64,000 nt of DNA from Catajapyx aquilonaris (GCA_000934665.2 KZ538356.1:1-64000), one strand, 5' to 3'. Shown: positions 2,914 through 25,339, counted from the first letter of the stretch. Made by a program: numbers and translations. The notes: generated by a model not told the origin, from the letters alone.

Positions 2914-5900
2914 TTAGTTCTGCACAAAGGATTGTGCAGCCATGATGAGCATCCGCATTTTCTTTGCCATCTTGTCTTGGGGGTTCTGAGTCAGGAATGT
3001 CCGCAGCTGCAGCTGCAGAGCTGACAGTACGACAGGTGCATGCTCTCTCGTGATGGGCTGCTTAATGTCCAGGTTGAGTATGGCTTCCTCAAGGTACTGA
3101 CATTTGAGGTGTGTCTTGTCCGAGAGGTCAGCTGACAACTGCTGCACAAGTGAGAGCAGAACATGTTGTTGCAGAGGGCAAGCAGCCCCAGCTCCAAAGA
3201 CATCCTGTGGATTAAGCCGCTCACACAGGAAAGTGACCAGGTTTAGATCAGATGCAGACAATGCTTGTTGGAATGCAGTGTTGGTCTGCCCTTGGGAAAG
3301 CAGGTGCAGGAGTTGCTTCTGGAGATCTGGCCCTGAAGCAGCGCCTGGTGACTGATGTGGTGCAGGGGTGGCTGCACCCGAGCGAAGTACAGCAGCTGCC
3401 ACACTGCTTTCAATGGCAGACTGCTGCTCCTGAAATCCCCTCTTGAGCTCTTCTTTGACACCTTTGCCAAGGCCATCACCCCAACAAGAGATGACGGACT
3501 GCACATCCTGAGTTATTCGCTCCCCGATGCGAGCTTCCCATCCACTTACTTTGCCTACTTCTCTGGTCACTTCTTGGCCCACTTCTGTTACTTTCCTGGC
3601 CACCTCATCCAATTTTGCAATTGGTGGCTCACAAGCTTTTCTGTTCTGTTCCAAGTGTTGATCAAGTGCTGCTATATACTCTCCAGTGCCTCTGTTGAAC
3701 GTCTGAGTCATGTCATTGAACACCTTGCTAAATGCCTTTTCCATCTGGGTTGCAAGGGTACTTGCTAATGCCTTTCGGGCCGTCTCCACCCGCGCAGCTT
3801 CTTCTGCCCTGCTCTCATCCACCACATCATGATATGCCTTTCGTGATGTTGCTGTCACAGTCTCATTCAGTACCTGCAGCAGTTGAATCTTAACCTGCTC
3901 AATGACCCCCCAAAATATGCATAGGTAAAATATTCAAGAAATTACAAAGAAGTCCCATTACATCAAGTTCCCCATGCACAAGTGCTAAATTATGCTGCAA
4001 CAACTGAGGAAAACGCAGAAGAAATTTTGCTCATGTCAAAAAATGTGGAAATTTAAAAAAACATGTGGTATGTACCTGGTCCATTGCCTGGCCCACTCCA
4101 TGTGAGGATGCAGTTGTGACTGCTCGCAACATCATTTCATTTGGAACCTGCTGCTGCATGGCATGTGTTCGCCAGGCACTCTCGAATGTCCACAGTGATT
4201 GGCGTTGCTTGGCGACTTCTTCTCTTAGCTCCTTCACCACTTCCATCACTTCTTCAGTAGTTGGGCGGCTTGGTGGTGGAAGTGCAGGGGGCATTGTCAC
4301 CACTGCCTTCACAGCCTGTATCTCCTTGTGCTGGTCACCTAATGCTGACCCGATGCCTTCTACAGCCTGAAGTACCGTGTCCAGTCGGTCCTCCAAGATC
4401 CTTAGGCGCTCGTCACTCTGCCAGTTTGGCTGGACTGAAGGGCTGCAAGAAATTTGGTGTAAAAGACAGCAACCCAAGCATACAGGAAAACTCCTCATCC
4501 CATCCACCATTTTTAGTGCCGTCATTTCTCATTATTTTCTCAAATAGTAGGATGCCACCTCTTTAATCAGTTGGAAAGAACCCAGAACTTACTGCAGTAC
4601 CATTTGCCACTGCCAAAATAGGTTTTACCATCTGAGCTACACCAATGGTAATCAGACTTGACAAGATAATTGCACAAAAATTTATGTCCATATAAAATTA
4701 TTGAACATCCTGCCCCTGTAACACACTCCTGCAAGAAAACTGAGGTTGCCAACTCACCTATGCTTGTCCATGACCTGCTTCGCCTGCTGCATTTCTCCTT
4801 TGCTTGGATACACGGACGCTGCTTCTTCCCTGGAAAACAAAATTGCCTTTAGCCCAGCAATGACTAACAACACAGTATACAATTGAGGACTCTGTACTTA
4901 CAGAAGATCTTGTGGAATCTGTGGCCAATTAGTCTGGGGAGTTGAGCAAGTAGGGGCAGCATCTCTTGCATCCTGCACTGGAATGGCTGACTTCACAATG
5001 GCCACTGATGATGGTGTGGTGGAAGGAGATACAGAAGTTGGAGGCTCTGTCTTTATGGGTGTGTTGGCAGAAACAACTGGGGGAATTGGAGGGGGCGATG
5101 GGAACTCCACCTTTCCTTCAGAGTTTTCAGCACTACGAAAAAGAAAAAGCAAACATTCTTGAACTTGACTCTTTTAACATCTTCTCACACCAGCATGAAA
5201 TTGTTTGCATGACCTCAGCTTTTAATTATAATTGCTCAGCAACAATTTAATAACTAAATTGCAGGTCTTCTACTGAATCATATGGTAGTGAGAGCTTGGA
5301 TGATGCAACATGTAGTTTCGTCCAAAGACTTTCAGCATCTATGGAGGACCCACTGTACAAGTGCTTCCACAAATATCGACATAGTTACCACCTGTGATGC
5401 AACACAAGAGTTCTAGCTGTGATTTGTTTAACTTAATCAGTTAACCAATTTAATATATTATTCTGTAACCAATAGGATCAACAATATTTTGATACTTGCA
5501 GTTGTGATACGAGACATATGGCACATCTGTGAGGTAGTTACAGAAAGTATTCAGTTACAGTGGAATGAGTGGATGCCGGTGGCATAAGCACCAATGTAAT
5601 TCTTCCCCTCACCTTATAACTTTAGTCTCTTCTTCAGGTATTGCTTCTACATCAGGTTCACCCTGTTCCACATAACTAGCAACATCTGTGAATGAAATAC
5701 AATCGCTGAGTTAGATGTTGTCATGCAATGCACGATGATTACTTTGCAAGGACACTAACCCTCCCTCTGGCTGGGGGACAAAATCTCCTCCACTTCTCGG
5801 CTGGGACTACTTCCAGTGCTCCTTAGGGGTTCCTTCTTATTGCTAGTTGCCACTATTGGGGGAGCTGGAGGTGGGGAAGGAAGGGGAGCTAGTCTGGGAT

Positions 5901-8900
5901 CACTCACTCTCTGAGCAGGGGATGTCAAGGGTGGTAAGGGAAGGGGAGGTAAAGGTGTTGCGGTTGTAGTTGATCCTGCAACTCCACTTGCCAGAATGTT
6001 TGCACCCACGTTGACACTCACCTAGAGAAAAAATGATTTGCATCAACTTATAATTACGCCAAATCACTGAAATCTGTTGTTTTACCCCCTGCTAAAAAGG
6101 CATGCCAATTACACTATTTTATGAGTCTTGCCAGTTAATTGCCAACAGTCTAGAATGCCAATCTGACTACCACAGCCTGGAAGAGGAACTTACACCATTC
6201 AGCATGTATGACAAGTCAAATATCTATGCAGTTACAGAAGAGAGTAATAATTCTATCTCCCATTAGCAACCTTTCATAAAGCACACTTATAGGTGATGCT
6301 AATATCCGACCTGTGAAAAAGAGAGGTCATCCTCATGCCCATTTGTTGGTCTTCCAGGTGAACTGAATGCATCCGGAGTCATCAAATTGAAGTGTGGTGT
6401 TGAAGCATTTGCACTGGTATTGGCTGCAGCAGGAGGTGAGGAAGGCGGTGGCGGAAGAGGCACCAGTGGAGCTGGTAAGGATGCCTTCTCTACATCTGAT
6501 TGGTGCTCTCCGTTTCCTGTTGGAGCTGTCAATGAGGTGTCGGAGAACCCTTCCAGAAAGCCTAATGACGATGACTCTTCACCAGAAGGTGCTACCATTC
6601 CACCAACCCCTGCCATAGCTGCCACACTTGGCTGGTATGTCACATGACACTCCTGTAAGCTTTTAGGCTGCACCATGTACATTCGTATTACGACATTCTC
6701 TGCCAGAGTTTCTTGACCAGTGATGCTGCATGAATCACCATCTGATTCAGAATCATCCTCAACCTGATCGCTCTCAATCTTCCCATTATCTGGTGTTGCC
6801 TTCCTTACCTGCAACAAGGAACATTCCCAAATATTGTCCATTTCAGTAAAACAATTCTAAACATATTCTTATTCCCAGTGAATGACACAAAGGTGTTCAC
6901 AAGGTTGCCTTGAGACTTCTAGTCAAGTATTTTAAGTACAATGCTTTTAAAAATTCACAATAAAACCACATAAGAAGTTATAACTGCATGGAGACGGACA
7001 AGAACATTGCATGCAGAAATTCTGCTTACGTAGCTGTTTTCCTGTCAGCAAAAAATATTAATTAGTTGTACAAAGTAACTGCTATGCACTTCAGGCCTGA
7101 TTCTGTACCTGCAAAAAAAAGGTGGATGGTCAGCATCCTCTTGACCTTTGACCCCACATACATGTTTGTAACACTCCTAGCTATGGAATAAGTTGCCGAA
7201 AATGGCAAAATGCAGTATCCAAAATTCTATATGATCAACATCCTACAAGCAACCCAATATTTCTTGCTTTATGGATAACAGAAAAGTAAGCAGAATTTCT
7301 CTAAGTACCGCTCCTTATTTGTTCCTGTATATTGTCTTCATAAGAGTATAATCAATCTTAGCTCTCCCTGTAAATCCAATCATTAAGCATGCCTAGTTGT
7401 GCTTACTTGGACATCAACGATGGCGAAGTAAATAATATGGCAAGGGAAGATAAATTCTGAGATGGATCGGAAACAGGCCCACTTGTCTTCAAGTCCATGC
7501 TGGATGTGGATGACATAGAGGGCCTGGTGAAATATATCTGACAGCAGGAGGTAACCTGCCCCAAGATCCAAATGAGTCTTGAAGCAGCATTTTTTCCTGC
7601 CTGCCTGCTGCTGGGGTGACGCAGACATGAGGTCGCTGTTTGAGTTCGAAGAGGAAGGGTCTGAGAAGCGGAGTGTTTGAAGGCACACCCACGACTCACA
7701 AGACCACACCTTCAGCTCAGTGTTGTTATCTGAACCAGTAACAGCAAACTTCCAAAACTGGGCCCTGAAACAGCAAAAAAAATGTTAAAATACTCACTCC
7801 TCCCACTTGACTGACGGACCTTTCATACATCAGGTTAGCATATGTTGAAGCCCAATTATGTAAAGCAAATTCATGCATTGGAATTACGAGGCAATTCACA
7901 CATACCTAACTTTTACCTTATAAAACCAAGAAAATAAATGCTAATAATTTACTAACTCTGGAGAGGGAACACGGTGATTATCAAGGAAGAACAAGCTGGA
8001 CACAGGCCTCCCATCATGTGGGGACCACTCATGGAGGCACCTAGCCTTGTGGCTTGGCTGGCGCAGATACACCTGGAAGAACTTGACCTGGCCATCCAGG
8101 CTAGCCGTGGCTATGGCTGTTCCATCTGGAGAGAAGGCTGCATCCACTACATCTGCCTGGTGATCATCAATCAGCGCACATCCAGTCTCAATAGCGCTTG
8201 GCAAATGGGGGCCTGACCCATTGTTGCGCACTACCGTTGGAATATGCCACAGTTCCACTCGATGAAAATGGGTCACTGCAAGCAGTTGGTTTGGGTCCTC
8301 CCCACCACCCTCCATGCTTGCGCTTTTTCCACTCACTGACGATAGGGAGGTGGATACAGTTGTGCTAACTTCAGTGTCACTGTCACTGTCTGTTGCATTG
8401 TCGTCAGGGATCCAGGGGCACCACACTACACGATGGTTCTCGCTGGAGGTCATCGGCTCAGGCTGGTTAATCTGCAATATCAATCCACATCTGGGAAAAG
8501 GTGAGTCAAGGAAAACTTGTTGCCATGCAGCAAGCAATATCATACACATATAGGGCAGTCTTGAAAATTAAAACCATACACCTAGGACCTAGTCCTATGT
8601 GATTAATTCAGTACCTATGAACTGTAGCTAAGATTAAACCATTATTTAGGGCAGCTACCATGAACAGTGCTCCTGTTATGTGCACACCAAGGCAATACTC
8701 CTACAGAAAGCCCAAAAACTTCTCTGAGTTTGAGTTCTGGTTGCAAAACTAGCAATAATCTATGGAATATCCTGAATAATATTTAAAAATTATATTGCAC
8801 ATTTATCCAGCAGGTGCCACAACCTTAGTGACAGTCATTCTTCAACCTGATGCTATTCTTTAAGACAATGCAATCACTTCCTGTACAACCTTAACATTGC

Positions 8901-10648
8901 AATGTGACTGGTTGCACAGGGAGCGCTTGCACAGTACGTCTATTGTTTCATTTATGTTGACTCAAGAAACACACAATTGCATGTGTTACCTACCCTAGAA
9001 TATAATCATATTTACAAAATACTAATTATATCCACATGGGATCTTGAAAACTGACCACCAGAAATTAATTCTTAAATATTCCAGATGGGAAAAAGGATAC
9101 AGAAGCAGAGAGTCATGAGATTCACTGATTTTGTAGACAAATAGGTTCCCCAGGTCATCCACGACAGCCAGCAACACTTGGGACATAATGTGTGCAAAAG
9201 AAAGATCTGTGATCATTCCCAGCATCCCTTTAAGGAGTGCTCGTTGTTCTGTTCGCCGATTCACCACTCGAACGACACCAAGCGCCTTCCCCACAGCTGG
9301 AAACATGGTTTAGTCAGAGGATCAATAAGAATGTGAATTGCAACTTGTACAGCATACCTTTAATCCCATAGGCAAGGTAGGTTCCAGAGATGTGAACAGT
9401 GACAAGTGTCCCACTAGTGTACTTATGCTCCCAGGCAAAGTCCACTATGTTCTTAAGCTTGAGGTTGGACGATGAGAAGGATGATGCCACCCCTAATTTT
9501 GAATGCTGCCCCAATGTGGGGGTAGGAGTCACCGTCACATCTTCTCCAAAAATCAGGTAGCTGTTGGCTTCATCATCAACACCCTGAAAGTTTCTGTCAA
9601 GAATTGGAAAGGGATTAGACATTCAGTGTGCATTAGGGCTCATCCACAAAGGTTACATAAACAGCTGCTGCCAGAAGTTACAGTTTGTCACTCATCACCT
9701 GTTGTGCACATGCTGTCAGATAACTTATATGCACTACCACACTGTGCAACTGGAGTGAAATATGCTGCATCAATTTGAACCTGTCTATTTCAGCCTTGAG
9801 GAAATGTATGAGTGTTAGATAGGACTCGTGAGGGTTTCTGAAGTGGGTAGTGGTAATGGCTGGTTTTCTCTTGCCCATCTTACATACGTGCATGAAATTA
9901 CGTTGTGGAATTGGACCACGACACAATAGTAGCCTACAGTATACTTGCTTATGTGTGATGCAGACTGAAGAAGTTCTCATTGGCATCATCATGCACTACA
10001 CAAGCCTGACTACATCAGATGCGAATGTAGGGTTAATACTGCCTGTGGAAAGCAATGAAAAGGCAGCCCTGTCCAACCATCAGACACCATCTTTAAATAA
10101 CTTTACCATAGTATCAAATAGACAATCAAGCTTGTTAATCCCCCCAGGGCCGAGTTGCACCTTACACATATCACAACCCCAAACGTGTCTAGTACTCTGT
10201 AAATGCACATACAGTTAGCCTGTTGGATGGTTGACTCCCCCATTTGACAAGCTTCATCAGACATCACTCCCAAATGTGCATACCCAGCTAGGTGACATTT
10301 CCGACCTTCCCACACTGAACAAGTCTTTCATAAAATTAACTCTCTGAAACAGACCCACACCATGCAAAGTGCATGAACCCCATTTTGCTCAACTTGACTG
10401 GCTGGCCAACCCAGCAGTAGCCACTTGAAAGGTATGCACACAATTTCCCTAGCTGGAACCACTGAGACCTGACTCTGCTGAAACAGTGTCAGCTTGGTAT
10501 GCGTGGTTTTGTGTTGTTGGTCCCCAGTCCCCCTGTGTGTATGTATGTCCCCCCACCGAACTCACATCTTCTGCACCCCAGCCGGCATGTCGGCGAGGGC
10601 GGACTCCGACCGGCCCTTCTTCCCGGCGCCGCTGCTGACGCCGAACAT
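2914..10648 (-). CDS. EDC4: Enhancer of mRNA decapping 4 (Ge-1), ~1296 aa, 12 coding exons
   Basis: Exons 10648-10566, 9593-9358, 9296-9101, 8490-7957, 7764-7407, 6808-6311, 6021-5760, 5685-5613, 5132-4902, 4829-4758, 4442-4076, 3894-2914 total 3891 nt in frame. WD40 propeller (AFSPDGTAIATASLDGQVKFFQ, RCLHEWSPHDGRPVSSLFFLDN, FWKFAVTGSDNNTELKVW), Ser/Pro linker, C-terminal AFQQALSASDL..LLSLVQQLSADL..YLEEA domain. The 3894 acceptor could instead be 3873. Confidence 0.93.
8491..9100 (-). other. U12-type GT-AG intron (EDC4 intron 3)
   Basis: Donor GTATCCTTT at 9100; branch TTCCTTGAC at 8513-8505 with the branch A 15 nt before the intron end; splicing preserves the frame (SLL-L-CGLILQIN). Confidence 0.9.
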
Positions 10649-11049: not shown

Positions 11050-12336
11050 GTGGCGCTATGTACAAATGGAATGCATTGTATACATTATGCATGTGTGGCA
11101 TGTGGCTCAGTTATTCAAGAGCACAAAGAAGATGCCGGTCTCGTTGCAGGAAGTACATCGATTGGATGGAATTTGCTGCCTGTGTCAATTAGAAGCGCAG
11201 GGGGGAAGTACCTTGAACGTTCATAATTATCTCATATGCGAACTATGCATGTATATGAAGACCTGAAATGTAAGTCATGCTTCGTTTGGTCTAAATTGAG
11301 GTAGACAATGGAATGTAGCCTACTCTTGTTAGACGCGTGTTTGCAATCTAAAGATTAGGCCAATGAAATTATTGACGGATTACCGAACCAAGTGTGTACC
11401 GGCATGTACCGGTATCACATGCACCAGCATGAGACCCTTATTGATGAGACCACCTTGGTTGAACTATTATTCAACTACAAAAAACATGACAAATTTTTAT
11501 ATGTATAAAAACTACATATAGTTCTACCTTCTACATAAGTTCTTATTAACCCTGGAACCCTTCTCTCTTAGTGCACCCCTCTACTTTTATCTAGATGGAA
11601 TGCATTATGAAAATATGTACTAAGATATATTTATGCATGCCTATTCATAGCACTTGCAGCATTGCAGATGTACGGCACTTGCTTCCCAGGTCCCTTTGTG
11701 GGTATGGGCCTCTGTACCTATCCCACCCCTTCACCCCACTTTCTCCAGTCGTGATGACAGGCACCTGTTAAAGAGGTCTACCACACGGTCTACCATATCT
11801 GGGATGAAAACAACAATTTTCTCTGGATATTTATTGACCAGAAACAAGTCCCCTCATAAACATACAACAGATATACTCCCAAGTATCAAATGTTTTTCAG
11901 GCACAAGTTGTCAGGCCTCAGCCAACACTCACCCCGAAAAAAACAATAAACAGGAAGAATAAAAATAATACAAGGAAAACAAAGGAAACCCTTTTAGGGC
12001 AAGGAACACTTGACTTATAACATAGTGCACCTGAAAATGTGCGTGGACTGAACAGGTAATCAGCTTGGAACACATACGTACTGTATAGTGGGCTGACTAG
12101 ATATGTTGCTCCTGTCTTTTTGCCTCCATGACTGAACCTTGAGCTTTATACACAATATTTTAAAAGAACAATTTGGTCACAAACCTTCACTTGGGTAATG
12201 GATAATTAAATGACATTTTAGCATTACATAAGTGGAGCAAACAAAACACTTCCCTACTGAACATCCTTGTGGAATGTGTGGTGAAAATTAGTAAAAGTTA
12301 AGTTTCACATTATGTAAGTGTAAAACCAATGTGATT

Positions 12337-15300
12337 TTACTCTTGTTCTCCACCTATGACTGCTTCCTTGAAGCCAAAAATGCGTCCCTCTGCATCTTCC
12401 TCTGATGCAACTTCAGGGACGCTTGGTCCTGGATCAGGGGCAGAATCAGGACTACTACCCTTTCGCCTCTTCTTCCGTTTCTTGCGTGGTGACTCTCCTG
12501 ATGAACTCGAGGGAAGCCCCATCAGAGATTTGCTGCGACGCTTTCTCTTCTTCCGCTTTGGTTCTGGTACCTCAGTGGGCAATCCATCTACTCCATCAAT
12601 AAGTGATGATGAACTCTTTCGCCTTGGGGGACTTTTGGCCCACTCTGGCATTGTCACTGGCTCACCAGTGTTTATGTCAACCAGCATTTTGTCTTTCTCA
12701 TCTTCATCTTCCAGTGTTTGGACCTCTTCTTCACCATCCTTAAACACAAGCATTTTCTCTGCATTTTCCACTAAGCCATGCTCTTCAGGGTCAGCCCACA
12801 GCTCCATCCTCTGGCATCGAAGAAAAGCATCAGGTCGCATATATCGGGCTGGTTTAAAATGCAGCTTGAGATGTTCTCGCAAAAAGTGCTGCTGTGGCAC
12901 AGAGTAGTCGCAAAACGGACAAATGTGTGTGCCAGCAGTGGCACCACTGACACACGCATGGCGCTGACGGTGTGATTCAACTGCGTCTCGTCGCTGGTTG
13001 CTATACGGGCAATACTCGCATTGGTAAGCTGCACTCTCCTTGGTTGAATTTGCTGGTGCTGGAGATGGATCTGACCGTCGCTTCTGTTGTATAAGCAGCT
13101 GTTGACGTTCTGCAGTTGTAAGCTCAGGGCCTAGTACTGGTGCAGGGGTTTCTGCTGTTGGTGTCTCTTCTACAGGGGCTGCACTGGGTGCTGGTGGCAA
13201 TCCTAGGGTCCGATGGGCATCCTCATTTCTTCGGTGCTTCCGCATATGCTGCACATAATTAGCATAATACTTCACAGAGTAATCACACTTGTCACACCGA
13301 TATTTCTGACGTGAACCATGTAATGCTACATGGATTTTATACTGTTCGTATTTCTCAAATGCTGATGGACATTTCTGGCATTTGTATCTCTTCTCCTTAA
13401 CCTTCCCATTCTTCACGCAGGTTGGGTACACAAATGCTGGGTTACCCCTACGGGCTACTTCAGAGTCAAGCAGATCGGCACCAGGGGTTGCTTCTGAGAA
13501 TGAACCAAGGGCAGGACCAGAAGTTTGGCTTGGTGGTGACACCATTCTGTGACGCTCTTCCTCCTGCCTGGCCTGCTTCTGCCGGAACAAATCTGTTCCT
13601 GACAACGGTATCTCATCTTCTTCAGCTGCTGCACCTGCCGCCAACAACATTGATGCCCGATCTTGGGTTTCAGGTTCTGCACCACCTTGATGCAATGCCT
13701 GATGGCGCACAAGATTTCCATACGTCTTCACACGGTAGTCACAATGACTGCAGCTGTAAGGACCCTTCCCACCATGCAGTGATTGATGATACTGAAGTGC
13801 AACTGATTTGACAAATTTAGCTGGACACCGCCCACAAGAAAATGGCTTGTGATTGGCAACAGCAGCTGCCTGAAAGTCTTCCAGTTCCTCCATATCTGCC
13901 TTCTTATCAGGAACTTCTGAAGCCTTCACTGCAAACACTTTTGGCTGTGGATGCTCGTCAGAAGCTTGGTATGTTTGCAGTAGAGATGCAGTACGCTCTT
14001 GGTACTCCCGGGTATGCACCTTTACATGTGCCAACAAATGTGGCTTCTGCCGGGCAGCATATGAGCACATCTCGCATCTAAAAGCCAGGCGAATCCCATG
14101 AAACTTATGATGAATGGTGACTTCCTTTTGGTAAAAGAATCGAGCTGGGCATTGTTGGCAGAAGTAGAGGGTGCGATCATCTTCATCTCCATCACCGCAA
14201 CCCAAGACCATTCCTCCTCCCTCCCCCTCTGCTTTCTGGGAGGCCAGGAGAGCTAACAGGCGATTGCCAGAATTGCCCATGGCCTTGGCTCCAGTGGCAC
14301 CTACCCTAGTAATGGTCACTGAGGGAAGGGATGATGCCAAGGTTGTGGCTAAGATGGAGGCAGCTGTTGAATGTTGTTGCTGCTGCTGGAGATTATGAGA
14401 TTGAGTGCTACCCATTGGCTCTGGAGGAGATGATTCCAGGACTGCACCACCACTGATCTCTCGCAGCTGGTCCTCTTCCGAACGAGACGGGTCAACTAGG
14501 GCATGAACTTCACCCAGGATCTTCTGGTGGACCTGTGGATTTTTGTAGGAATTATAAATGTGCATGGCTCCTCTGTACACACTTAGGTTGACTAGCACTT
14601 CCCAGTATGCCTGGCACATTGGAGCATATTATTTCACCAAAAAACCATTAAAAGTCTGAAAATCACTTCACATTCTGAGCTTTCCCCATGAAAGGTGCAC
14701 ACATGTATTAAGTACCCAAAAAAGTGTCCCATGCACGTTTTAAATAACACATAAATTTGATTCCTGTTCATTCTAAGCTGAAATGGACTACGTGCTGTAT
14801 ATGGCAAATTAGCTGGGACGAGGTAGTGTGCTGCCCATAAATTCAGAAATTAGCTCAAGCTTTTAGAATGATCTTCCCATAAGATGTGCAGTATACTGAC
14901 CTTAAGATGAGCAGACAGCACGCCAGCATTGTTGCAGCAATAGCTGCAGTAGTAGCACCTGTGCAACTGCTCCATTCCACCAGTCCCTGCTGCACCACCG
15001 AGTCCCATAAGCAATGAGGCTGGGGACGACCTGCCCCTCTTGTCGTGCATCTTCTCATGCTCCTGTATGTTAACTTTCCTAAAGTTGACATGTGGACAGT
15101 ATCGGCACTTGAACATCTTGTAGAATTTTGTGCCTCTTGACACCCACACCAGAGGTATATCCTGAAGGTTGCAGGTCTCTGAATCTGGTAGTCTGTGCCA
15201 TAGCTGCTGCCTTCGACCTTTGGCTGCCTGCTTCTTAGCCCTTGGTGAAGGCTCTGGGATGTCAGTGGTGCCATCCTCCTGCATCCGAGAAAGATCACTG

Positions 15301-18300
15301 GCAGTCATCCCATGAACACGCAGATGCTGGTGGAGAAGGTGGCGTCTGGTCACGTTGTAACTGCATTGTGGGCACTTGAATGGGGCACCACGAGGGCGAT
15401 GGAACTGCTTGTGATACAGGAACTGACTCTTGCTGTCGCTCACATAGGGGCAGCTGCCGCACTTGTACTTCTTAGTCTCTCCCTTCTGGGATCGGACACC
15501 CTTGGTGGATAGGTCGTCTCCAGTCTCCTCCTCCTTCAGCTCCGGTGCACCACTGTCATCTGGATGGTCAGGTAGACTCAAGTCGAATCCGTCCCGATTG
15601 TAGTACCCAAACCCATCTGAAAGATACAAATTCATACCTCAATATAATATTCCATATTAATATCACTACTTCACTAGTATTAATATCACTAGATTTTCTC
15701 CCTTTAAATTATCTTTACTTCAATAACAAATAAATGTAATAAAACCAGTATTTTATTAATTTTAGCATTTCATAGCACCTCATAATGCCTCTCACTCTTT
15801 AGTCCCCTTGAATTTATATGAGGTTTTTAGTTAAATGGAATTTGATATTATATGGAGTGGTACAGTGAAAAGGCCAATATATTACAATAGCATCAGAAAT
15901 ACAAGTGATATGTTATGTACAAGTTATTCATGTTACATGACGCCCTAAGGGAAAAGAGATGAAATTCTCAATGTTGTGACATCTATTTGTTATAGTGAAG
16001 CACTGGGAAAATTGGAAACTCACTGCCTTCTTCAGTCTGATGTCCCATGTGGCTCAGCTGTTGCTGCAAATGACCCAGGGGATTTATTGGTCCGCACTCA
16101 TCTTCTGGCATAGCTTCTGGGGCATCATCCTCATGTGGCTTGTTCTCCACCACCCGTATGTCCCCATCATGCTTCAGCCTGCAGTGACGCTGAAAGAGCA
16201 ACAAGTAGTGTCACACATTGTTCTTACAAGACTTCCAAGTATTGCAGAACATATTTGAAGATCAGGTAATTCCCTTTGTAATAATGTCCACATATTTAAG
16301 CGTAATTAAAAAATTGCAAAGAAATTGCTGTGAACATGATCCAAAATCTTGCAATTGAATAGCTAGGCATTTATTATCACTTTAAACCTCATTCTTAACT
16401 TTGCTCAAAATGACAAATAATGAATAGAGTGGCTAATTATTATTTCTTCCCATGAGCTATTTGAAATATAACCACGAATAGGAACATTTTGGCACAAAAT
16501 ATCGGGGTCAATTCCACTATGTCCCACTTTGCCTGCACTCATGGCTAAAGAATCCGCCTTATCATGAAATGAATGAATTGTGCCAGCCTTCCAAGATTGA
16601 CAGTAACTTGACAGAAGCTGATAAAATATCAGATCCAACTACAACATAATGGCCTGTGTGATTCCATATACTGTATATTCTTTGTGAATTCATTGGGCCT
16701 GTCAGTCAAGCTTCTTCACATTAGTTTGGAACTAGCTTCTTGGCTCCAATTGGTCCATTGCCATGAACAAGGCCAATGCAAGTGTGAGAGACCAGTCCCA
16801 CACTAATTAGAAGCAGACAAAATATATAATATAGCCTACATGCAGTATTCCTCTCACAACCACGATTTCAGTTTTCCACGATTTGAAAATATTAACAAAA
16901 TATCAAATATTAATAATCCAATATATGTTTTCAGTACAGTACAGCACTATATCATTAGACATATTTTATTTGATTGCTTATTGTTTTTGCTGATGTCTTT
17001 AATTTTTCAGCATATCATGTGTATCATATGTTTCGATGTGTTTCATAGGTATGTATGATAATATAATTTATGTGCATTATATTATGGGGTTCAGTATTAC
17101 CCCCAGTTTCAAGCATCTGCAGATGGGCTTGGAACCTATTCCCCATGGATATGAGGGGAATACTGTACATGTAATCCATTCTGTTGGAATTGCAACAACT
17201 GCGATTTTAAGAAATATATGTTCTGTTCATTCCTCTTGATTTACATGTAAACAAGTCTATGCTTAGGGGTCATCCATAACATACTTCACATTGCTGAGGC
17301 AGAAAGGAAGGGTTAAAAGGTTGGGAGGTGGTCCAGGACATGGTAGGAAGAAAATTGAACTGATTCAGTCCACCATGACATGATTCCAAAGAATAGAAGA
17401 ATGCATGGTGGGGGGGGGGGGGGGGGGGGNGGGGGGTCCCTTTTTTTTCTTCAAATCCCTTTTCTATAAATTCGTCCTGACCTAGCAAAAAACAAGTTCT
17501 TGCTGATGCAATCATGACTTGACAAAAAATATTTGAATTGGGAATTATTGTTACAGAGAAATAAAATGCAAGCTTATGTTACTGAAAAACTGTGAAGTCA
17601 ATATGGTCTGTTCGTGGCAGTAACAATCAGTGCTACGGGTATCTCAAGGCAGAAAAAAGTGTGACATTGGGATAAAGGGAATGAAAAATCCTTACATCAT
17701 TACAGATGGCCCCTAAACTTAAATGTAAAAAATTCAAGCAAAAAGTCAAACTAATTATGAAATTGCAAATCAACAAATGGCCAGGTTCTATGTTGCAAAA
17801 GGAGAGAGCATACTACCTCACTTGCAGAAAGAGAGAGACCCTAGTACACATTACTTACATGCAACTTAGGCACACAAAATACACATACTCAAAATTCTAT
17901 CTAGCAAAATAATAAATAAAAATAAGATCAAAGGTGGGTTGGGATAGATGGATGATATAGGTCAGGGGGATTTGTAAGTTGCATCGTCATGAGCAGCATC
18001 AGCATCAGCAGCAGCACATTATCTCATGCCATGCGTCTTGGTTTCCAATCACAAGAGTGGGGAGGAGAGCAGTGGAAAGATGTACCTGAATGACATGTTT
18101 CCAATTTGATACCTGAGCACAGTGGCCACACTGGAAGGGTGGTTGGGGTAACCCAACCTCGGAAGAAGTAGAAGAGGCAGGCGCTTTCATCTGCTGGCCC
18201 CGGTAGTGTTCCTTGATGTGTGCTACTACTACATCCTTGTTAGTGTCCCTGCAAGAAGCAAGGTACCCAACCACCACTGTTACCCTCAGTTCCAAATACT

Positions 18301-21300
18301 CTGCTGGATACCCAGCTGAAACAACCCAGTCTACTTTAAAACCTTACAGAGAGGATCGGCATGCAAAAGAAACATCCATCACCACTGCTAACTGGAAAAA
18401 AGAGAAGATCCACCTGGAAGAGTCCCTCCAATATGTTAATCAGTAACCCAACAGTTGTCATCCGTCCCCTTCCAATCATCCATCCATCCAACCCACCTGA
18501 CCTATCTACAGGAGCGCTACATGGCCAATCAAAATTACGCAAGATTTGTGTGGGGAGGAACCTAGCATTACCCTGATGACAGACTGCCAGCGGGATCCTT
18601 TTCCGCAGATACCACACAAAAAGTTTTCATGGTTGGTGTGCTTGGCAATATGAGCCATCACCATCCGCTTGTCCTTGTGCCTGTGGTTTAATAGAAAAAA
18701 AGACATGTTTGTGATCCACAAAATCTAACACTCGGGAATATGCCACACTCTGAAAATGAAATTTCATTAATTAATGACACAAATATGAAAATGCAGCGAG
18801 TAACTCTTGCAACTGAATAAATAATTCATAATGTGCTGAACCTGTTTGAAATCATTCAGCATTATATGAAATGTCATGTATTGATTTATAGAATTATCTA
18901 TTCATTAATTCATTCACCTTTGCTCCTTTTGTCAGTGATATTCATGCATTATGTAACTTGAGTGGCTGCAGAGCCCAAGTTTTGCAAGAAAAATATCCAG
19001 TAGTCTTAACCAGCAGCATATTAATTTTTAAAATTAAAGTTTGATATTGTCCCATAATCCTGAACCTGTCTGCAATGGAAAATTTCCACAAAACAAAGTG
19101 ATTCCACTGTATGCAAGTCTTACTGCATCAACAATTTTGTGCATTTCTTTATCTACAACCAAGCTACTTCTGATTCTTAATAATGTGCCTCACAGTCTTA
19201 ATATAAATCTACTGCTATGCTCATTAAATTATTTTACCAGATAATTATATGCATGGCAATCAGTGCACCTATGCAAACACAGCAACTTATTGCAACCAAC
19301 CACTCGAGGCGGCACATTATACTAGTGGTGAAGAAAGGCAACATTTCTTCCCCAATGAGTCCTTGTGCAAGGAATAAGGCCTTGAAAGAATTACCCATTA
19401 TAAACTCAATCTAACCCAGCAATAACAGTTTATCCTATGTGAAAAGTTTTTTCGAAAACTCTGCAGTTAATCAGGGCGGGATATGGGTGTTTACGCAGCA
19501 ACTTGCGTGGAGGTGGGGTGGCTATGCTCTCATTATTCTGCCCACTCCTGCTTCCTGTCAGCAGAGTTTGTGAAACAGCTTTACAAAAATTATACATCAG
19601 ACTAGCTTTTTCTTATAAATTATGATCAAATGTGATGGCAAAATGGCCTTTTCCATACTTCTATGTAAAAAAAAAAAAAATTTAACGCAGCTACCACTAT
19701 TTGTATTTCTCTTGTCATGTACAATAGGAATTGAACTCCTCCATACCATTGCTCATCCCTATTTCTGAATTCATGCAGAAATTAACACACACAAGACTTC
19801 CATAATTCAGCCTCCCAAAAGTGCCTGAACATTACCCCAAAACACATACCAAAATTACAATTTGCGTACATCTCCCGAGAGAGTGACAAATTTTAAAATA
19901 GTTCCCTTGATAGACTGAGTTATGAAAGTTCTCCAATGCTGTTTGTCAATTAAACAATTTTCGCCTTAGAAATTAACCACTTTAGAGATAAAGCAACATT
20001 TACAATGTAAAAAGTTTTTTTTACTGACCTAAAAGCACACTTCTTGCATTTCCACACTGTCTTTCTTGAGTCTGGCAGAACAGGGATCTGCAAAGGTGGT
20101 GGTGGCGGTGGCGGCGGCGGAGGAGGAGGAGGTGGAAGAGGCGGGGAGTCAGGTGGTTGGGCATTGGTAGGGAATGCAGACAATGACCCAGTCCCGCCAA
20201 TTACACCAGGAGACCCCGATGAAATGCCGGTCATGCTATTTCTCCTGCGCTCAGGTTTCTTCTCCCAGTGGTAGTCCTGCTTCTCATTGAACAGTAGTTT
20301 GGCAGACTTCTTCAAAGTTCGTCTCGGCCTCTTTACCTCCTGTGAACCATCAGACATTGCATCTGTCCCGTACACTATGGCTGTCTTGCCATTGCCTAGG
20401 TTCATCCTGGTGGCAGTTGATGATGAAGGCTTGGCACCACTTCTCCATGTATGTGCGTACAAAGGTGGAGGAGGTGGGAGTGACCGGAGAGCTGTCAGTG
20501 GTGGTGGTGGCCTCAGTGATGGTGCCTTATTTCGTAGTACTGATTGGCCCACACGTACTGGTGCCCTTGTCAGGGGTGGCGGCAATGGCAGCTTTGGAGG
20601 CGAAGGTGTTGGACGGAGTGAGTATGGGGCTTCTGGTGTTGTTGATCGGCTACTTTTAGATGATGCTGATGGACATGGTGATGGTGTGGCAGATCTGAAT
20701 TTGGCTCTCTTTCCAGCACCACTACTCTCAGGTGTCTTCCCCTGAGCTGCTTGTCGTAATTCCATAGCAACTAGATACCGGTCATACTTCTCATAGTTGC
20801 GCTCTCCCGTCTCGTCTGTCATCAACACCTTGGCACTTGAAGCATGCTGTGGATCTCTAGCTGACTTCAACTTGATATGCTTAGTAATATCCCATCGCCA
20901 ATTGGAACGATATGCACACTGAGAGCATTCAAATGGCTTCTTGTTAAAATGCCCGACAATGTGCACATGAAATCGTGATGCTGTGGTTGCCCAGAAGGGG
21001 CACTGTGGGCACTTGTAGACTTTCTTCACTGTGGTGGTGCCTGTTGGTGACGTCTTGGCAGGTGTGCTTCGGCCTTGTGAACTGCCTCGGCCATGGCCCC
21101 GTCCAGCTCTGCCACCACGTCTTCGGGATCCCCCACTGACTGCACCTATTCCAGGAGCTGTCTCAAAACCGACCAGGCTGGCCTCAGAAGGTGATTTGCT
21201 GCGGACTGAACTGGCCTCATAGCTCTCTTCACCTAGGGAGCGAACAGAGTGGCCATCATCTTGGCACAGTGGGCCATCCTCCTCCTCGTCAATGTCAGCA

Positions 21301-24300
21301 TCATCATTTTCGCTATCTCTCATGCTTATCATCAGCTCGGGTTCCAGATCTGTCTCTGTCTCCGGTTCTGGTGCTTCTGTCTCAGGAAGGTGATTCCACA
21401 CAAACACCTGAGGAAAACCAACATTATCACATGTAACACCAAGTACCTTCAAGAAGTCTAATTCAAACAGGCCAGCACCTTGACCAAAAGATATCCCTTG
21501 AATTTGAGGTAGTTGTACTTCTAGTATGATACAAGAGCAGATTGAATTATCTTGGCAAAATTTCAGCTCATGCAGCAGCACAACATGTGAAACTATCATA
21601 TGGAATTCCCCACTCAACATTCCTTAACAAACAAAACATACTGTATTTACCAAATATGAAGACAAGTATTTCATGTGTTCACACAATACCTTATTTTCCA
21701 TGGGATGTGTTCCAGAATTGTTGTCATCCTCTTCCACTTCCTCCAATTCCTTCTTGATCACCACAGGTTCCTCTTCCTTTCCCTCCTCATCGGCTTCACC
21801 TTCTTCACCTTCCACAATCTCACTCTTAACTTCTACCATGGGTTCCTCTTCATTTGCACCATCATCATTGTCCTCTCGCTCCTCCTCATCCTCCTCTTTC
21901 CTCTTCCCTCCTGCACTTTTCTTTCGTCCTCCGCCCTTTCGGTTGTTGATGGGCCTTTGCATGTCCTTTCCGCCTTTAGGCTGCAAGCTCTTTTTAGCCT
22001 CTTCACATCCTTTCAGGTGCTTAACCAAATGAGCACTGGTTTTGCATCGTTGTCGACAAAACTGGCATCTGGTGGAGGAAGGTTTTGACACAAAGCTTGA
22101 GGAAGCTTGAGGATTAACAACGGCAGTTGGACTGTTTGGGTTGTAGCAACAATTCAATCCACTATTGCTGCTGGAGGAGGCAGCAGCAGCACTCAGGTGA
22201 AGCTTCTGGTGTCTAACTGACTCAGACAGGCATTTGGACTCATGCCCACAGTAATTGCAGATCAGGTTTTGCACATCTGTGGTGGACAATCTCTCTTTGA
22301 GGCGTTCGAAGAAGGATGACACTGGCTGGCGCTTCTGGGGCGCCACTGGCGAAGGTGCCTCCTCAACTGGCAGATCAGCAGCCACTTCCTCAGGCTTGTG
22401 CTCTTCTTCTTCACGATCACCCTCAATGGAAGCTGTTGAATCTGCTGGTGCTGATTTGCACTCGGCCTCCTCCGGCTCTTCTCCACCTGACCTCCTCCTT
22501 GGTACCTGGGGTATCTTCAATATTGTGGGTTTGGCTTGTTCAGACACCGTCTGGATTGGAATCAGATTGGGAATAGGCTTGACCACCTTTCCTCCCTTTC
22601 CTGCTGTGGAAAAGGGTAATGGTGCTGTAGGCAAGGAGATAACCCCATGTGTCTTCTGCTCATGCCGCACAATCTCACTGTCCCACACAGCCTTGTAGTT
22701 ACAGAATCGACACTTCAGGTTCTTGATGTACACCTTCCCATTTTTGTGGATGATGTCATCAGGGTGGATAAAATCCTGACGAAAATTGTGACGCTCATGC
22801 TGCTGGTTCTGTCCTGCTGGCCTGCCCACTGGGCGCATCTTCTTCAAAGTCAGCTTTATTTTGGGGCGGCGGTGAGAGGGTGATGGCAAATCATCGGCAG
22901 GTGGTGCTACATCTTCCTCAGGGGCCTCTGGAGTTACCACAACAGTATTGGCATCTTCAGGAACATCCTCCTGGCTTGATACCTGGAAGGCATCTGTCGA
23001 CTCCTCCTCAGCACCCTTTGAATCCACCTCTTCTTCGTCGTCGTCATCATCATCGTCGTCGTCATCATCCACATTGTTATCCTCACGCTCCATCCTCAAC
23101 AGCTCCATCTCTTCTCTGTCAATTTCAGCCTCAGCTTCGTCACTTGCCCCAACCTGCAATTAAATGTGGTCAACAATCTCCAAGCAACCAAAAACACCCA
23201 AAACATTCCCAAATGACGTCAGCAATTCTAGTGAGGTCACTACATTAGTATCATAATGGCTGAGTAATAACATGTCAGTCATCATGCAACCAGTAGTGGA
23301 ATGACACATTACTGAAAGTTTGACACATTTTGCACTTCCTTTCGCAATTATAACAGCAAATAATGACTAATTAGTAATACACATTAAGAATTTATTGCAT
23401 TATATTCAATTAAACCGTTTAAAGACTACTTTCTTTTAAAGGAGGGCTTTTTGTTTGCAAATTGTGCTTGGGGATCAATCACTATAAAATTGTGCAACTG
23501 CATAAATATTTAAACAACTTATTTTAAATATTTAAATGCAAAAATTAAAGGAATGAAAAGGCAGAATTCTAGTGATCATCTCTCACTACTGCATTTCAAG
23601 TTTTAGCTTCACGGGAAAGGTACTTGGTATAGACTGAATACTGGAAATATATGGTCACAAACACCACAAACTTCATCAAACATAAAATATTGGTGACATC
23701 ACTTGACAACCACTTGTAGACATGCAGCAACATGGAGCAAGCACAAAGACATGCAAGGCAAACACAAGCCTCGCAGGGTGGACTACTCACACACTGGACA
23801 CTACTGGACAACAGCGGACAGCGGTCAGCAGCAGGCTTTTTAGCTGCTGGTACACCACCAGCCTCACGAACCTTGTTCCGCCTGCGGGCGGCCTTTGACC
23901 TCCCTGGACTCAGATGATGATTCTGGATGTGCACTGTGAGGCTCTGCTTAATATGGGCTGTGAAGTTGCACACGTCACACTTGAATGTCCCATCTCCCAT
24001 ATGGTTCTTGTAGTGGCGATCAAGGTTCCACTTGTAGGGTGTCCTGAAGTCACACATGTCACACTTGATCATCGGCATGGAGTGATACTTGACATGCTTG
24101 GTATAACGGGCCTTGACGTGAGTCACATAATTGCACTTGTTGCAGCGAAAGAATTTTTTCTTCAGATGTGCGACCTGCTCATGTCGTTGGACCAAAATCT
24201 TGCTTTTGCTGCTGAAGTAGCACACGGAGCACTTGTAGTCACTGATCTCACGATGGTGGTGCCGACGATGGTGTTGCAGTCGACTTGTGGCTGCTTCTAG

Positions 24301-25119
24301 AAGGCTGCCCTTACCGGTTGGTATTACCACCATCGGTGGTACCTCCTCTTGCTCCTCTATTTCTTCACCGACATCTTCTGGTTGTGGTTCTTCTTCGGGC
24401 AGCTCCTCCATCTCCAAATCACCATCAACATCCATCTCGTCTACGTTTCGTCCACATGCCACATCCTCCATCAGGCGAAATGCAGCAGCAGCTTTTGATG
24501 GTGACTTGCGCCCATTACTCCTCCTCATTGTCTTCCTGGCTGACTTGGGCTTTGCTGGTGTAGTAGAAGCACCAATTGGTGGCAACCTTGGGGTTGGTCC
24601 TGGAATGTGTACCATACGTATGTGCCTCTGCAGCTTCTGGCTGTGCTTTGAGGCATAGATGCAATGAGGGCACTCGTATATGCGAATCTTCTCCCCATGA
24701 GTGTCCTTCTGGTGGTACAGAAAGTTTCGGGGATTCTGCGTGTAGTATGTGCAGTGACCACAGGTGTAGTTACGCTTGATTTTGCAATCAGGTAGTGCTG
24801 CCGCAGGGGTACTGGAGCCACCCGGGAGAAACAAGCCCGAGGCACTGGTATCCATCTCAAGGTCATGTTCAAAAAGGTCAGAGGAGTCATGCTCCCCACC
24901 CATTTCATCCAGGTCTTCATGATCTTCCCCAATGTCATCCCGATCACCAGAACCCTCGTCACCATCTTCACTTGCCTGTTCATCAGTGTCATAGAGACGG
25001 TTGCCACTAACAACACTCTTGACAACTAGACTGTCCCCATTCCTATGGACCATGGACAGCGGGGAGCTGTATGAGGACAGGTGCAGCGGCAGTCGCGCTG
25101 ACTTCTTCAACTTCTCCAT
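12337..25119 (-). CDS. Large multi-cluster C2H2 zinc-finger protein (REST/spr-4-like paired fingers, possibly the Drosophila CG9932 group), 2425 or 2443 aa
   Basis: Exons 25119-23872, 23153-21690, 21407-20029, then 18680-18572 OR 18248-18086, then 16189-16024, 15616-14901, 14532-12337; all GT-AG; 7278 or 7332 nt in frame. More than 20 CxxC-x12-HxxxH fingers, acidic and Pro-rich linkers, C-terminal basic NLS-like runs. An acceptor near 25161 implies an upstream non-coding exon. Confidence 0.9.
16843..17165. mobile_element. Tigger/pogo-like non-autonomous DNA transposon
   Basis: Ends CAGTATTCCTCTCA and TGAGGGGAATACTG followed by TA; the right subterminal region resembles MER2/Tigger-type ends; AT-rich interior. 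Confidence 0.65.
18086..18248 (-). other. Zinc-finger gene alternative exon B (163 nt)
   Basis: CTTGCAG acceptor and GTACAT donor; encodes DTNKDVVVAHIKEH...FQCGHCAQVSNWKHVIQ. Confidence 0.85.
18572..18680 (-). other. Zinc-finger gene alternative exon A (109 nt)
   Basis: CCACAG acceptor and GTAATG donor; encodes HKDKRMVMAHIAKHTNHENFLCGICGKGSRWQSVIR. Confidence 0.8.
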
Positions 25120-25339
25120 TGTTTAAGTCCTAATCCAAATCACTAGGATGCATCCTCAACTGTAATGAAAGAGACATCATGTTGTATAATACTGGAAATC
25201 TCCACATGGAAATGCACCATTTTGCCTAGACACACACCCTAAGCAAAATTTTGTCATTTGGACATGTCCAATTAAGAACGTCACTTTTTGATCACTGGTC
25301 CACTTTATTGTGACTGAGAACCACTGCTTTTGCAATTAC

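Follow-up and report, generated by a model that had tools for sequence, protein, structure and literature searches.

Mutually exclusive exons are common in arthropods, and cases in which such exons recut the DNA-binding module of a transcription factor, as in serpent (srp) and FoxP, are fewer. In this study, we analyzed a stretch of 64,000 nucleotides (nt) from Catajapyx aquilonaris (GCA_000934665.2, KZ538356.1:1-64000), hereafter the window, in which two neighboring exons of a large zinc-finger gene, exon A (109 nt) and exon B (163 nt, or 136 nt in a short form), lie between the same two constitutive exons. We consider it likely that they form an ancient, tandem-duplicated and mutually exclusive pair in a conserved arthropod multi-C2H2 gene, with three states referred to below as A, B-long and B-short. 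A full-text literature search retrieved no paper on this gene or exon pair, which adds a new case to a familiar class of splicing switches.

Two described systems resemble the pair in that splicing acts on C2H2 fingers. In WT1, the +/-KTS forms arise from an in-frame alternative 5' splice site, with three residues inserted in the linker. The choice of donor thus alters a finger pair, as do the two donors of exon B at 18113 and 18086, with the difference that WT1 adds three linker residues, whereas the short form of exon B removes nine finger residues and loses the C2H2 spacing. The BTB-zinc-finger genes lola, fruitless and Broad have alternative 3' exons, each with its own finger pair, and there, as in the window, splicing picks the C2H2 finger pair that is placed on a common protein body. 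Whole terminal pairs are swapped in those genes, whereas the window swaps an internal block consisting of half a finger, the linker and half a finger, and exclusivity is enforced by the reading frame.

For Drosophila srp, a 2002 study by Waltzer et al. reportedly deals with the consequence for the zinc finger. The mutually exclusive exons 4.1 and 4.2 of this gene are controlled by bidirectional long-range RNA pairing, and inclusion of the first exon requires stem II, in which an intronic element lying between the exons pairs with another located beyond the second (Yue et al., 2016; PMC4691838). Like the window, srp has its two alternative exons side by side in a transcription factor of the zinc-finger class. 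Its fingers are of the GATA type whereas those of the window are C2H2, and its duplication is reported there to be Drosophila-specific, whereas the window pair is common to a cladoceran and barnacles. In FoxP/FoxP1, the forkhead DNA-binding domain contains alternative exons that go back to an old tandem duplication (Santos et al., 2011; PMC3002244); as in the window, the duplicated exons are part of the module with which a transcription factor binds DNA. Further likenesses to the window pair are that the FoxP isoforms are unlike at residues crucial to contact with DNA and that some lineages or paralogues retain only one exon. FoxP differs from the window in its forkhead fold, in its constant linker length and in having no third form that destroys a finger. 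Finally, exons 7a/7b of Ate1 and exons 3/Ab of U2AF1 are described as two-exon mutually exclusive clusters in which, as in the window, one of two homologous tandem exons is included (PMC7797038; PMC5224494). These are vertebrate genes with other protein domains, and competing intronic RNA structures are described for Ate1, whereas none was significant in the window.

Results

The host gene is a large arthropod multi-C2H2 zinc-finger gene on the minus strand, extending from about 25122 to about 11850, and stop-to-stop frames together with Pfam indicated that its protein has numerous C2H2 fingers set far apart. Exons A and B are neighbors, and both lie between constitutive exon borders at 20029 and 16189 (all exons and introns of this gene are on the minus strand). 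The upstream constitutive exon (21405-20029) ends in the middle of finger 1, with WKCKKCAF plus the bases AG in phase 2, and reads TGG AAA TGC AAG AAG TGT GCT TTT AG/GTCAGT at its 3' border (20029). The downstream constitutive exon (16189-16024) starts with CGT CAC TGC in phase 0, and its first residues, RHCRLKH, supply position +6 and both histidines of finger 2. Exon A lies at 18680-18572, flanked by AG and GTAATG, and has 109 nt (36 codons and one base). It encodes the closing half of finger 1, a linker of the canonical seven residues and the opening half of finger 2. The long form of exon B (18248-18086; 163 nt), flanked by AG and GTACAT, encodes the corresponding two half-fingers joined by a 25-residue linker and ends in SNWKHVIQ. 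An internal donor, CAG/GTATCA after 18113, defines the short form (18248-18113; 136 nt). All three translations are open, each form starts in phase 2 and ends in phase 0, and the lengths of 109, 163 and 136 nt are all 1 modulo 3.

Because these lengths are all 1 modulo 3 and the phases are shared, exactly one exon is needed to keep the frame. In-silico splicing of A alone or B alone gave two complete fingers of the form C-x2-C-x12-H-x3/4-H. Joining A to B brought a stop two codons into B (GGA CAC TAA), and omitting both brought a stop five codons into the downstream exon, and mRNAs carrying both exons or neither would presumably be degraded by nonsense-mediated decay. Exclusivity is thus enforced by frameshift and early stop, in the window and alike in a cladoceran-like contig described below (L001). 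The preliminary description of this locus had placed two exons of 109 and 163 nt between an upstream exon that stops in mid-finger in phase 2 and a downstream exon that resumes with RHCRLKH in phase 0, and had argued that including both or neither shifts the frame. Coordinates and sequence agree with these borders, as do RNA joints at 20029 and 16189, and the early stops bear out the frame argument. Both exons read open at 18680-18572 and 18248-18086, and the only exit from B found in RNA is at 18113, not at 18086.

The RNA came from one public run (X1) in the form of assembled contigs, from which 17 pieces were aligned to the window, 12 of them at 99% identity or above. The contigs are spliced, and X1 is therefore taken to be RNA, though the record carries no RNA label. 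Five GT..AG joints were obtained on the minus strand, 21688→21405, 20029→18248, 18113→16189, 16024→15616 and 14898→14529, by which the donor at 20029 and the acceptors at 18248 and 16189 are real. The joint 20029→18248 includes B and bridges exon A. The sole exit from B (record 1) lies 27 nt inside the 163-nt exon, at 18113, where record 3 also starts. Records 1, 2 and 3 alone make up the depth of the bin 18010-18660 (2177 depth-letters over 651 bases, or 3.34).

Contact positions in the fingers were assigned by the usual helix numbering. In the recognition helix of finger 1, A and B have different residues at positions -1, +2 and +3 (D, R and M in A; N, D and V in B), whereas in that of finger 2 they differ at +1, +2 and +5 only, with W(-1), V(+3) and R(+6) unchanged. 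The biggest difference between the exons is linker length: from the last histidine of finger 1 to the first cysteine of finger 2 there are seven residues in A, the canonical linker, and 25 in B, where the canonical linker is absent. The difference of 18 residues is the one first proposed for this pair, and the proposal that a single switch alters both helices and the linker holds for the finger 1 contacts and for the linker. For finger 2 it was too strong, and "both helices rewritten" is an overstatement, since W(-1), V(+3) and R(+6) are kept. The A-type finger pair of Daphnia aligns without gaps, through the linker, to solved finger pairs of PRDM9, ZBTB24 and CTCF, and the B linker is longer still, and variable, among insects.

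Both fingers have the classical C2H2 spacing in A and in B-long. The two donors of exon B, 18113 and 18086, lie 27 nt apart and in frame, and use of the first was seen in RNA; use of the second in C. aquilonaris is suggested by conservation of the encoded peptide in orthologues. The short form retains finger 1 and loses nine residues, VSNWKHVIQ, which are most of the finger 2 helix. With these residues removed, the second unit has the spacing C-x2-C-x3-H and is not a finger. Because splicing from 18113 leaves most of this helix out, the switch has at least three states, namely A, B-long and B-short.

Exons A and B are homologous to each other (BLASTP E 3e-5; 16/52 residues identical) and retrieve each other by tblastn, whereas a six-frame search of the whole 64-kilobase (kb) window found no third copy. 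Orthologues were sought with the last exon as query. The 120 longer insect and crustacean proteins listed are at most 42% identical, are named as uncharacterized, "Xfin-like", "ZNF91-like" or "ZNF142-like", and were sorted by the region after finger 1. The B-long arrangement, in which SNWKHVIQ is followed directly by RHCRLKH, was present in 59/120, mostly insects. B-short was found in two, both from beetles (Tribolium madens X2, P0037; Diabrotica, P0098), so that long-B and short-B protein models are both represented in beetles. Eight proteins (six from beetles, one hemipteran, one lacewing) keep RHCRxKH and lack the first half of finger 2, three are otherwise B-like (Amphibalanus P0030 and P0034; Asbolus P0057), and one, from Pollicipes (P0026), is A-type. 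Another 34 have finger 1 without RHCRxKH. The remaining 13 have neither motif; these are mostly decapods, with stomatopods also represented, showing a diverged single form, together with P0032 (ostracod) and P0101 (beetle), and all 13 were excluded from the trees. Two more A-type proteins, from Daphnia (P0123 and P0124), came from a region search based on the Pollicipes segment. Judging from the short and shortened protein models and from the exit of exon B at 18113 in RNA, finger 2 looks like a hotspot of alternative splicing across taxa.

Exon A of the window is identical to the Daphnia exon at 28/36 positions. Over 31 finger columns, window A shares 26 residues with Daphnia, 22 with Pollicipes and 10-14 with B-types, whereas window B shares 17-23 with insect B exons and 12-14 with A-types. 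In a maximum-likelihood tree of these 31 columns, A-types split from B-types with support of 98/97, and the split had support of 97/95 over 27 columns with both L001 exons included. When exon A was compared with 1.84 billion representatives, 3 of the 150 matches listed were single-stretch, at 78-81% identity, the rest being swamped by multi-finger proteins; these three are open reading frames with an A-type exon nearly identical to that of Daphnia that read through into unrelated flanks. A word-index search with a 40-residue window reference gave no candidate, a result that is uninformative, as P0123 shares several five-residue words and falls in the length range.

A scan of metagenome contigs, with alignment of A-type exons, yielded a cladoceran-like contig of 4047 base pairs (bp), L001, that carries the complete arrangement. 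Its exon A is identical to that of Daphnia pulex, and its flanking exons are 70-80% identical to those of this species. The upstream exon runs to 2688 and closes in phase 2 (WKCKRCVF plus AA), exon A spans 2805-2913 (109 nt), exon B spans 3119-3410 (292 nt, 1 modulo 3) and ends with CNQVSNWKHVIQ, and the downstream exon starts at 3552 with RHCRLKH. Exon order and phases are common to L001 and the window, as are the 109-nt length and the AG/GT borders of A. Inclusion of both L001 exons gives a stop two codons into B, inclusion of neither an early stop, and in the 27-column tree L001 B is placed among the B exons of the window and of insects. To judge from the protein model P0034, the barnacle Amphibalanus has an A-like exon followed by a B-like one, which matches the order of the window. 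Three other loci from the scan, L002-L004, were set aside because they matched exon A only in part, at 46-59% identity, and L002 resembles a different finger gene.

A candidate RNA helix was found in the introns around exon B. Its first arm (18508-18459, minus strand) is in the A-B intron, starting 64 nt past the donor of exon A, and its second arm (17972-17919, minus strand) is in the intron that follows B, starting 114 nt past the donor at 18086. The arms pair over 43 bp (39 Watson-Crick and 4 G-U; -58.9 kcal/mol) and enclose exon B. The seed-and-window value was -53.5, against a mean of -31.7 (standard deviation 3.0) for dinucleotide shuffles, none of 150 of which reached the observed value. 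Among 150 real adjacent segment pairs of the window, two reached the helix value, one of them being this locus. The helix is present in both the minimum-free-energy and the centroid folds of the 681-nt stretch. With up to three mismatches allowed, the window contains no further copy of the arm, and the idea that it is a high-copy repeat was dropped on the evidence of these 64 kb. The topology is that of the downstream pairing of srp, and the helix could loop out exon B and so favor A. A function of this helix is possible, and we hold it only tentatively.

Some further observations concern the same region. In L001, the first stretch of the intron that follows the upstream exon (2689-2730) can pair with a G-rich segment at 3038-3077, 40-80 nt before B (-28.5). 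This value was reached by 2/200 shuffles in one of three comparisons and is not relied on; the pairing would loop out A, a topology opposite to that of the window helix. In the window, the only other good match of exon B is a finger of the upstream exon, 20895-20936 (PFECSQCAYRSNWR), with the S-N-W motif of finger 2, which, as the best non-self match, suggests an older internal finger duplication in the gene. A second X1 contig runs unspliced from 18142 to 17612, through the donor at 18086, at a depth of 4.45, similar to that of exon B, while adjacent intron bins are nearly empty; it could represent intron retention or an alternative 3' end. Read-through past this donor would append 26 residues after VIQ, followed by a stop. 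The last three exons (11850-16189) have a contig depth of about 37, compared with 3-9 for the upstream exons (20028-25170), a difference that could stem from a 3'-biased library or from a shorter transcript with an internal start. The intron 21406-21687 (282 nt) splits two long open frames, and raw read-through is stopped only at 21623/21624. A poly-C run with one N at 17397-17429, in the intron after B, is probably a weak point of the assembly and was skipped as a repeat in read alignment. Downstream of the host gene, Pfam identified a DENND11-like single long frame on the plus strand (1042-2220) and an EDC4-like multi-exon gene on the minus strand (2914-9600); database comparison assigned the DENND11-like gene to Arthropoda. 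Among the public protein models, P0034 reads through both alternative exons plus the intervening intron, and P0057 retains the intron after B, which indicates that the locus misleads gene predictors.

Discussion

Considering the above results, we favor with fair confidence the interpretation that A and B arose by an old tandem duplication and are spliced in a mutually exclusive way, giving A, B-long and B-short states; comparison with other genomes supports this architecture well, and RNA supports it in part. Of the single-exon mRNAs that this interpretation predicts, B without A was seen in X1, and A without B is known from protein models of Daphnia and Pollicipes. The choice of exon would determine the half-finger that closes finger 1, the half-finger that opens finger 2 and the linker between them. 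The A state would give a canonical tandem pair with a seven-residue linker, the B-long state two fingers joined by a flexible 25-residue linker, and the B-short state a protein that keeps finger 1 and loses finger 2. DNA binding by these fingers is putative, and so is any difference in binding specificity or function between the isoforms.

Use of exon A in C. aquilonaris is argued from conservation, and an unlikely alternative is that exon A is an unused relic here, only B mRNAs being made while the duplicate decays without having yet acquired a stop. The transcript evidence, all of which includes B and joins across A, is what such a relic would leave. However, the 28/36 identity of exon A to Daphnia compares with about 25-33% for other window exons against P0123 (a rough figure that includes cross-finger matches), and exon A of L001 is identical in its 109-nt length, its phases and its AG/GT borders. 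All zinc ligands of exon A are intact, and the protein models of Daphnia and Pollicipes carry an A-type exon. The preliminary description had allowed for a dead exon duplicate, to be recognized by the absence of exon A junction reads from every tissue together with the lack of a conserved reading frame in relatives. Open A-type exons were found in Daphnia, Pollicipes and L001, and an A-like one in Amphibalanus, and since the pair is intact in C. aquilonaris, in a cladoceran and in a barnacle model, a dead duplicate is unlikely.

We judge somewhat less probable still that the true exon B is the 136-nt form only, the 27 nt up to 18086 being intronic and finger 2 never being made from B. The sole exit junction, 18113→16189, agrees with this, as does the contig through 18086 that runs unspliced to 17612. 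Yet those 27 nt encode VSNWKHVIQ in frame, and SNWKHVIQ joined to RHCRLKH occurs in 59/120 orthologues and in L001, a conservation that is hard to square with untranslated sequence. Long and short protein models are both present in beetles, and at a depth of about 3.5 a second junction is easily missed. That the pair is mainly a poison device, lowering output by unproductive splicing rather than making two protein isoforms, is very improbable, for although A plus B and neither exon both meet a stop after a few codons, in L001 as in the window, a complete finger pair is encoded by A on its own, the A-type pair is the form found in Daphnia and Pollicipes proteins and (in Daphnia) aligns gap-free to canonical solved pairs, and a poison exon needs no conservation at the amino-acid level.

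Returning to the mutually exclusive pair, several points weigh against it. The transcript evidence is a single run with a depth of about 3.5 over B, in contigs that lose rare variants and give no proportions. Of the four junctions that had been singled out for counting, X1 contigs contained 20029→18248. Neither of the exon A junctions, 20029→18680 and 18572→16189, was seen among them, and no X1 contig lies on exon A, a blank that at this low depth is not evidence against its use. The junction 18086→16189 was not seen in these contigs either, and B-long is a predicted isoform in this species; at such depth, and with rare variants lost from contigs, this junction could have been missed. The trees rest on 27-31 columns only. 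The Amphibalanus B-like exon has a long branch and shares 15-18/31 residues with B-types compared with 14-15/31 with A-types. As for RNA structure, srp has a second, upstream pairing, whereas the corresponding pairing of the window, between the upstream intron and the A-B intron, which would loop out A, is not significant (-28.6, reached by 57/100 shuffles). The equivalent intron pair of L001, the sole relative compared, gave -18.4, a value reached by 142/200 shuffles.

In the models, insects show B, long or short, whereas Daphnia and Pollicipes show A. A wider scenario, which we regard as rather doubtful, is that a three-state switch predates the split of barnacles, cladocerans and insects, that the intronic helix sets the ratio of A to B, that lineages have come to rely on different states, and that the DNA targets would vary by tissue or taxon.

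At this locus one splice choice alters both the recognition helix of finger 1 and the spacing between the fingers, which makes it a natural experiment on linker length and target reading. Because the pair is intact in C. aquilonaris, a cladoceran and barnacles, while the models of different taxa differ in the exon they carry, it is well suited to the study of how such a switch is resolved.

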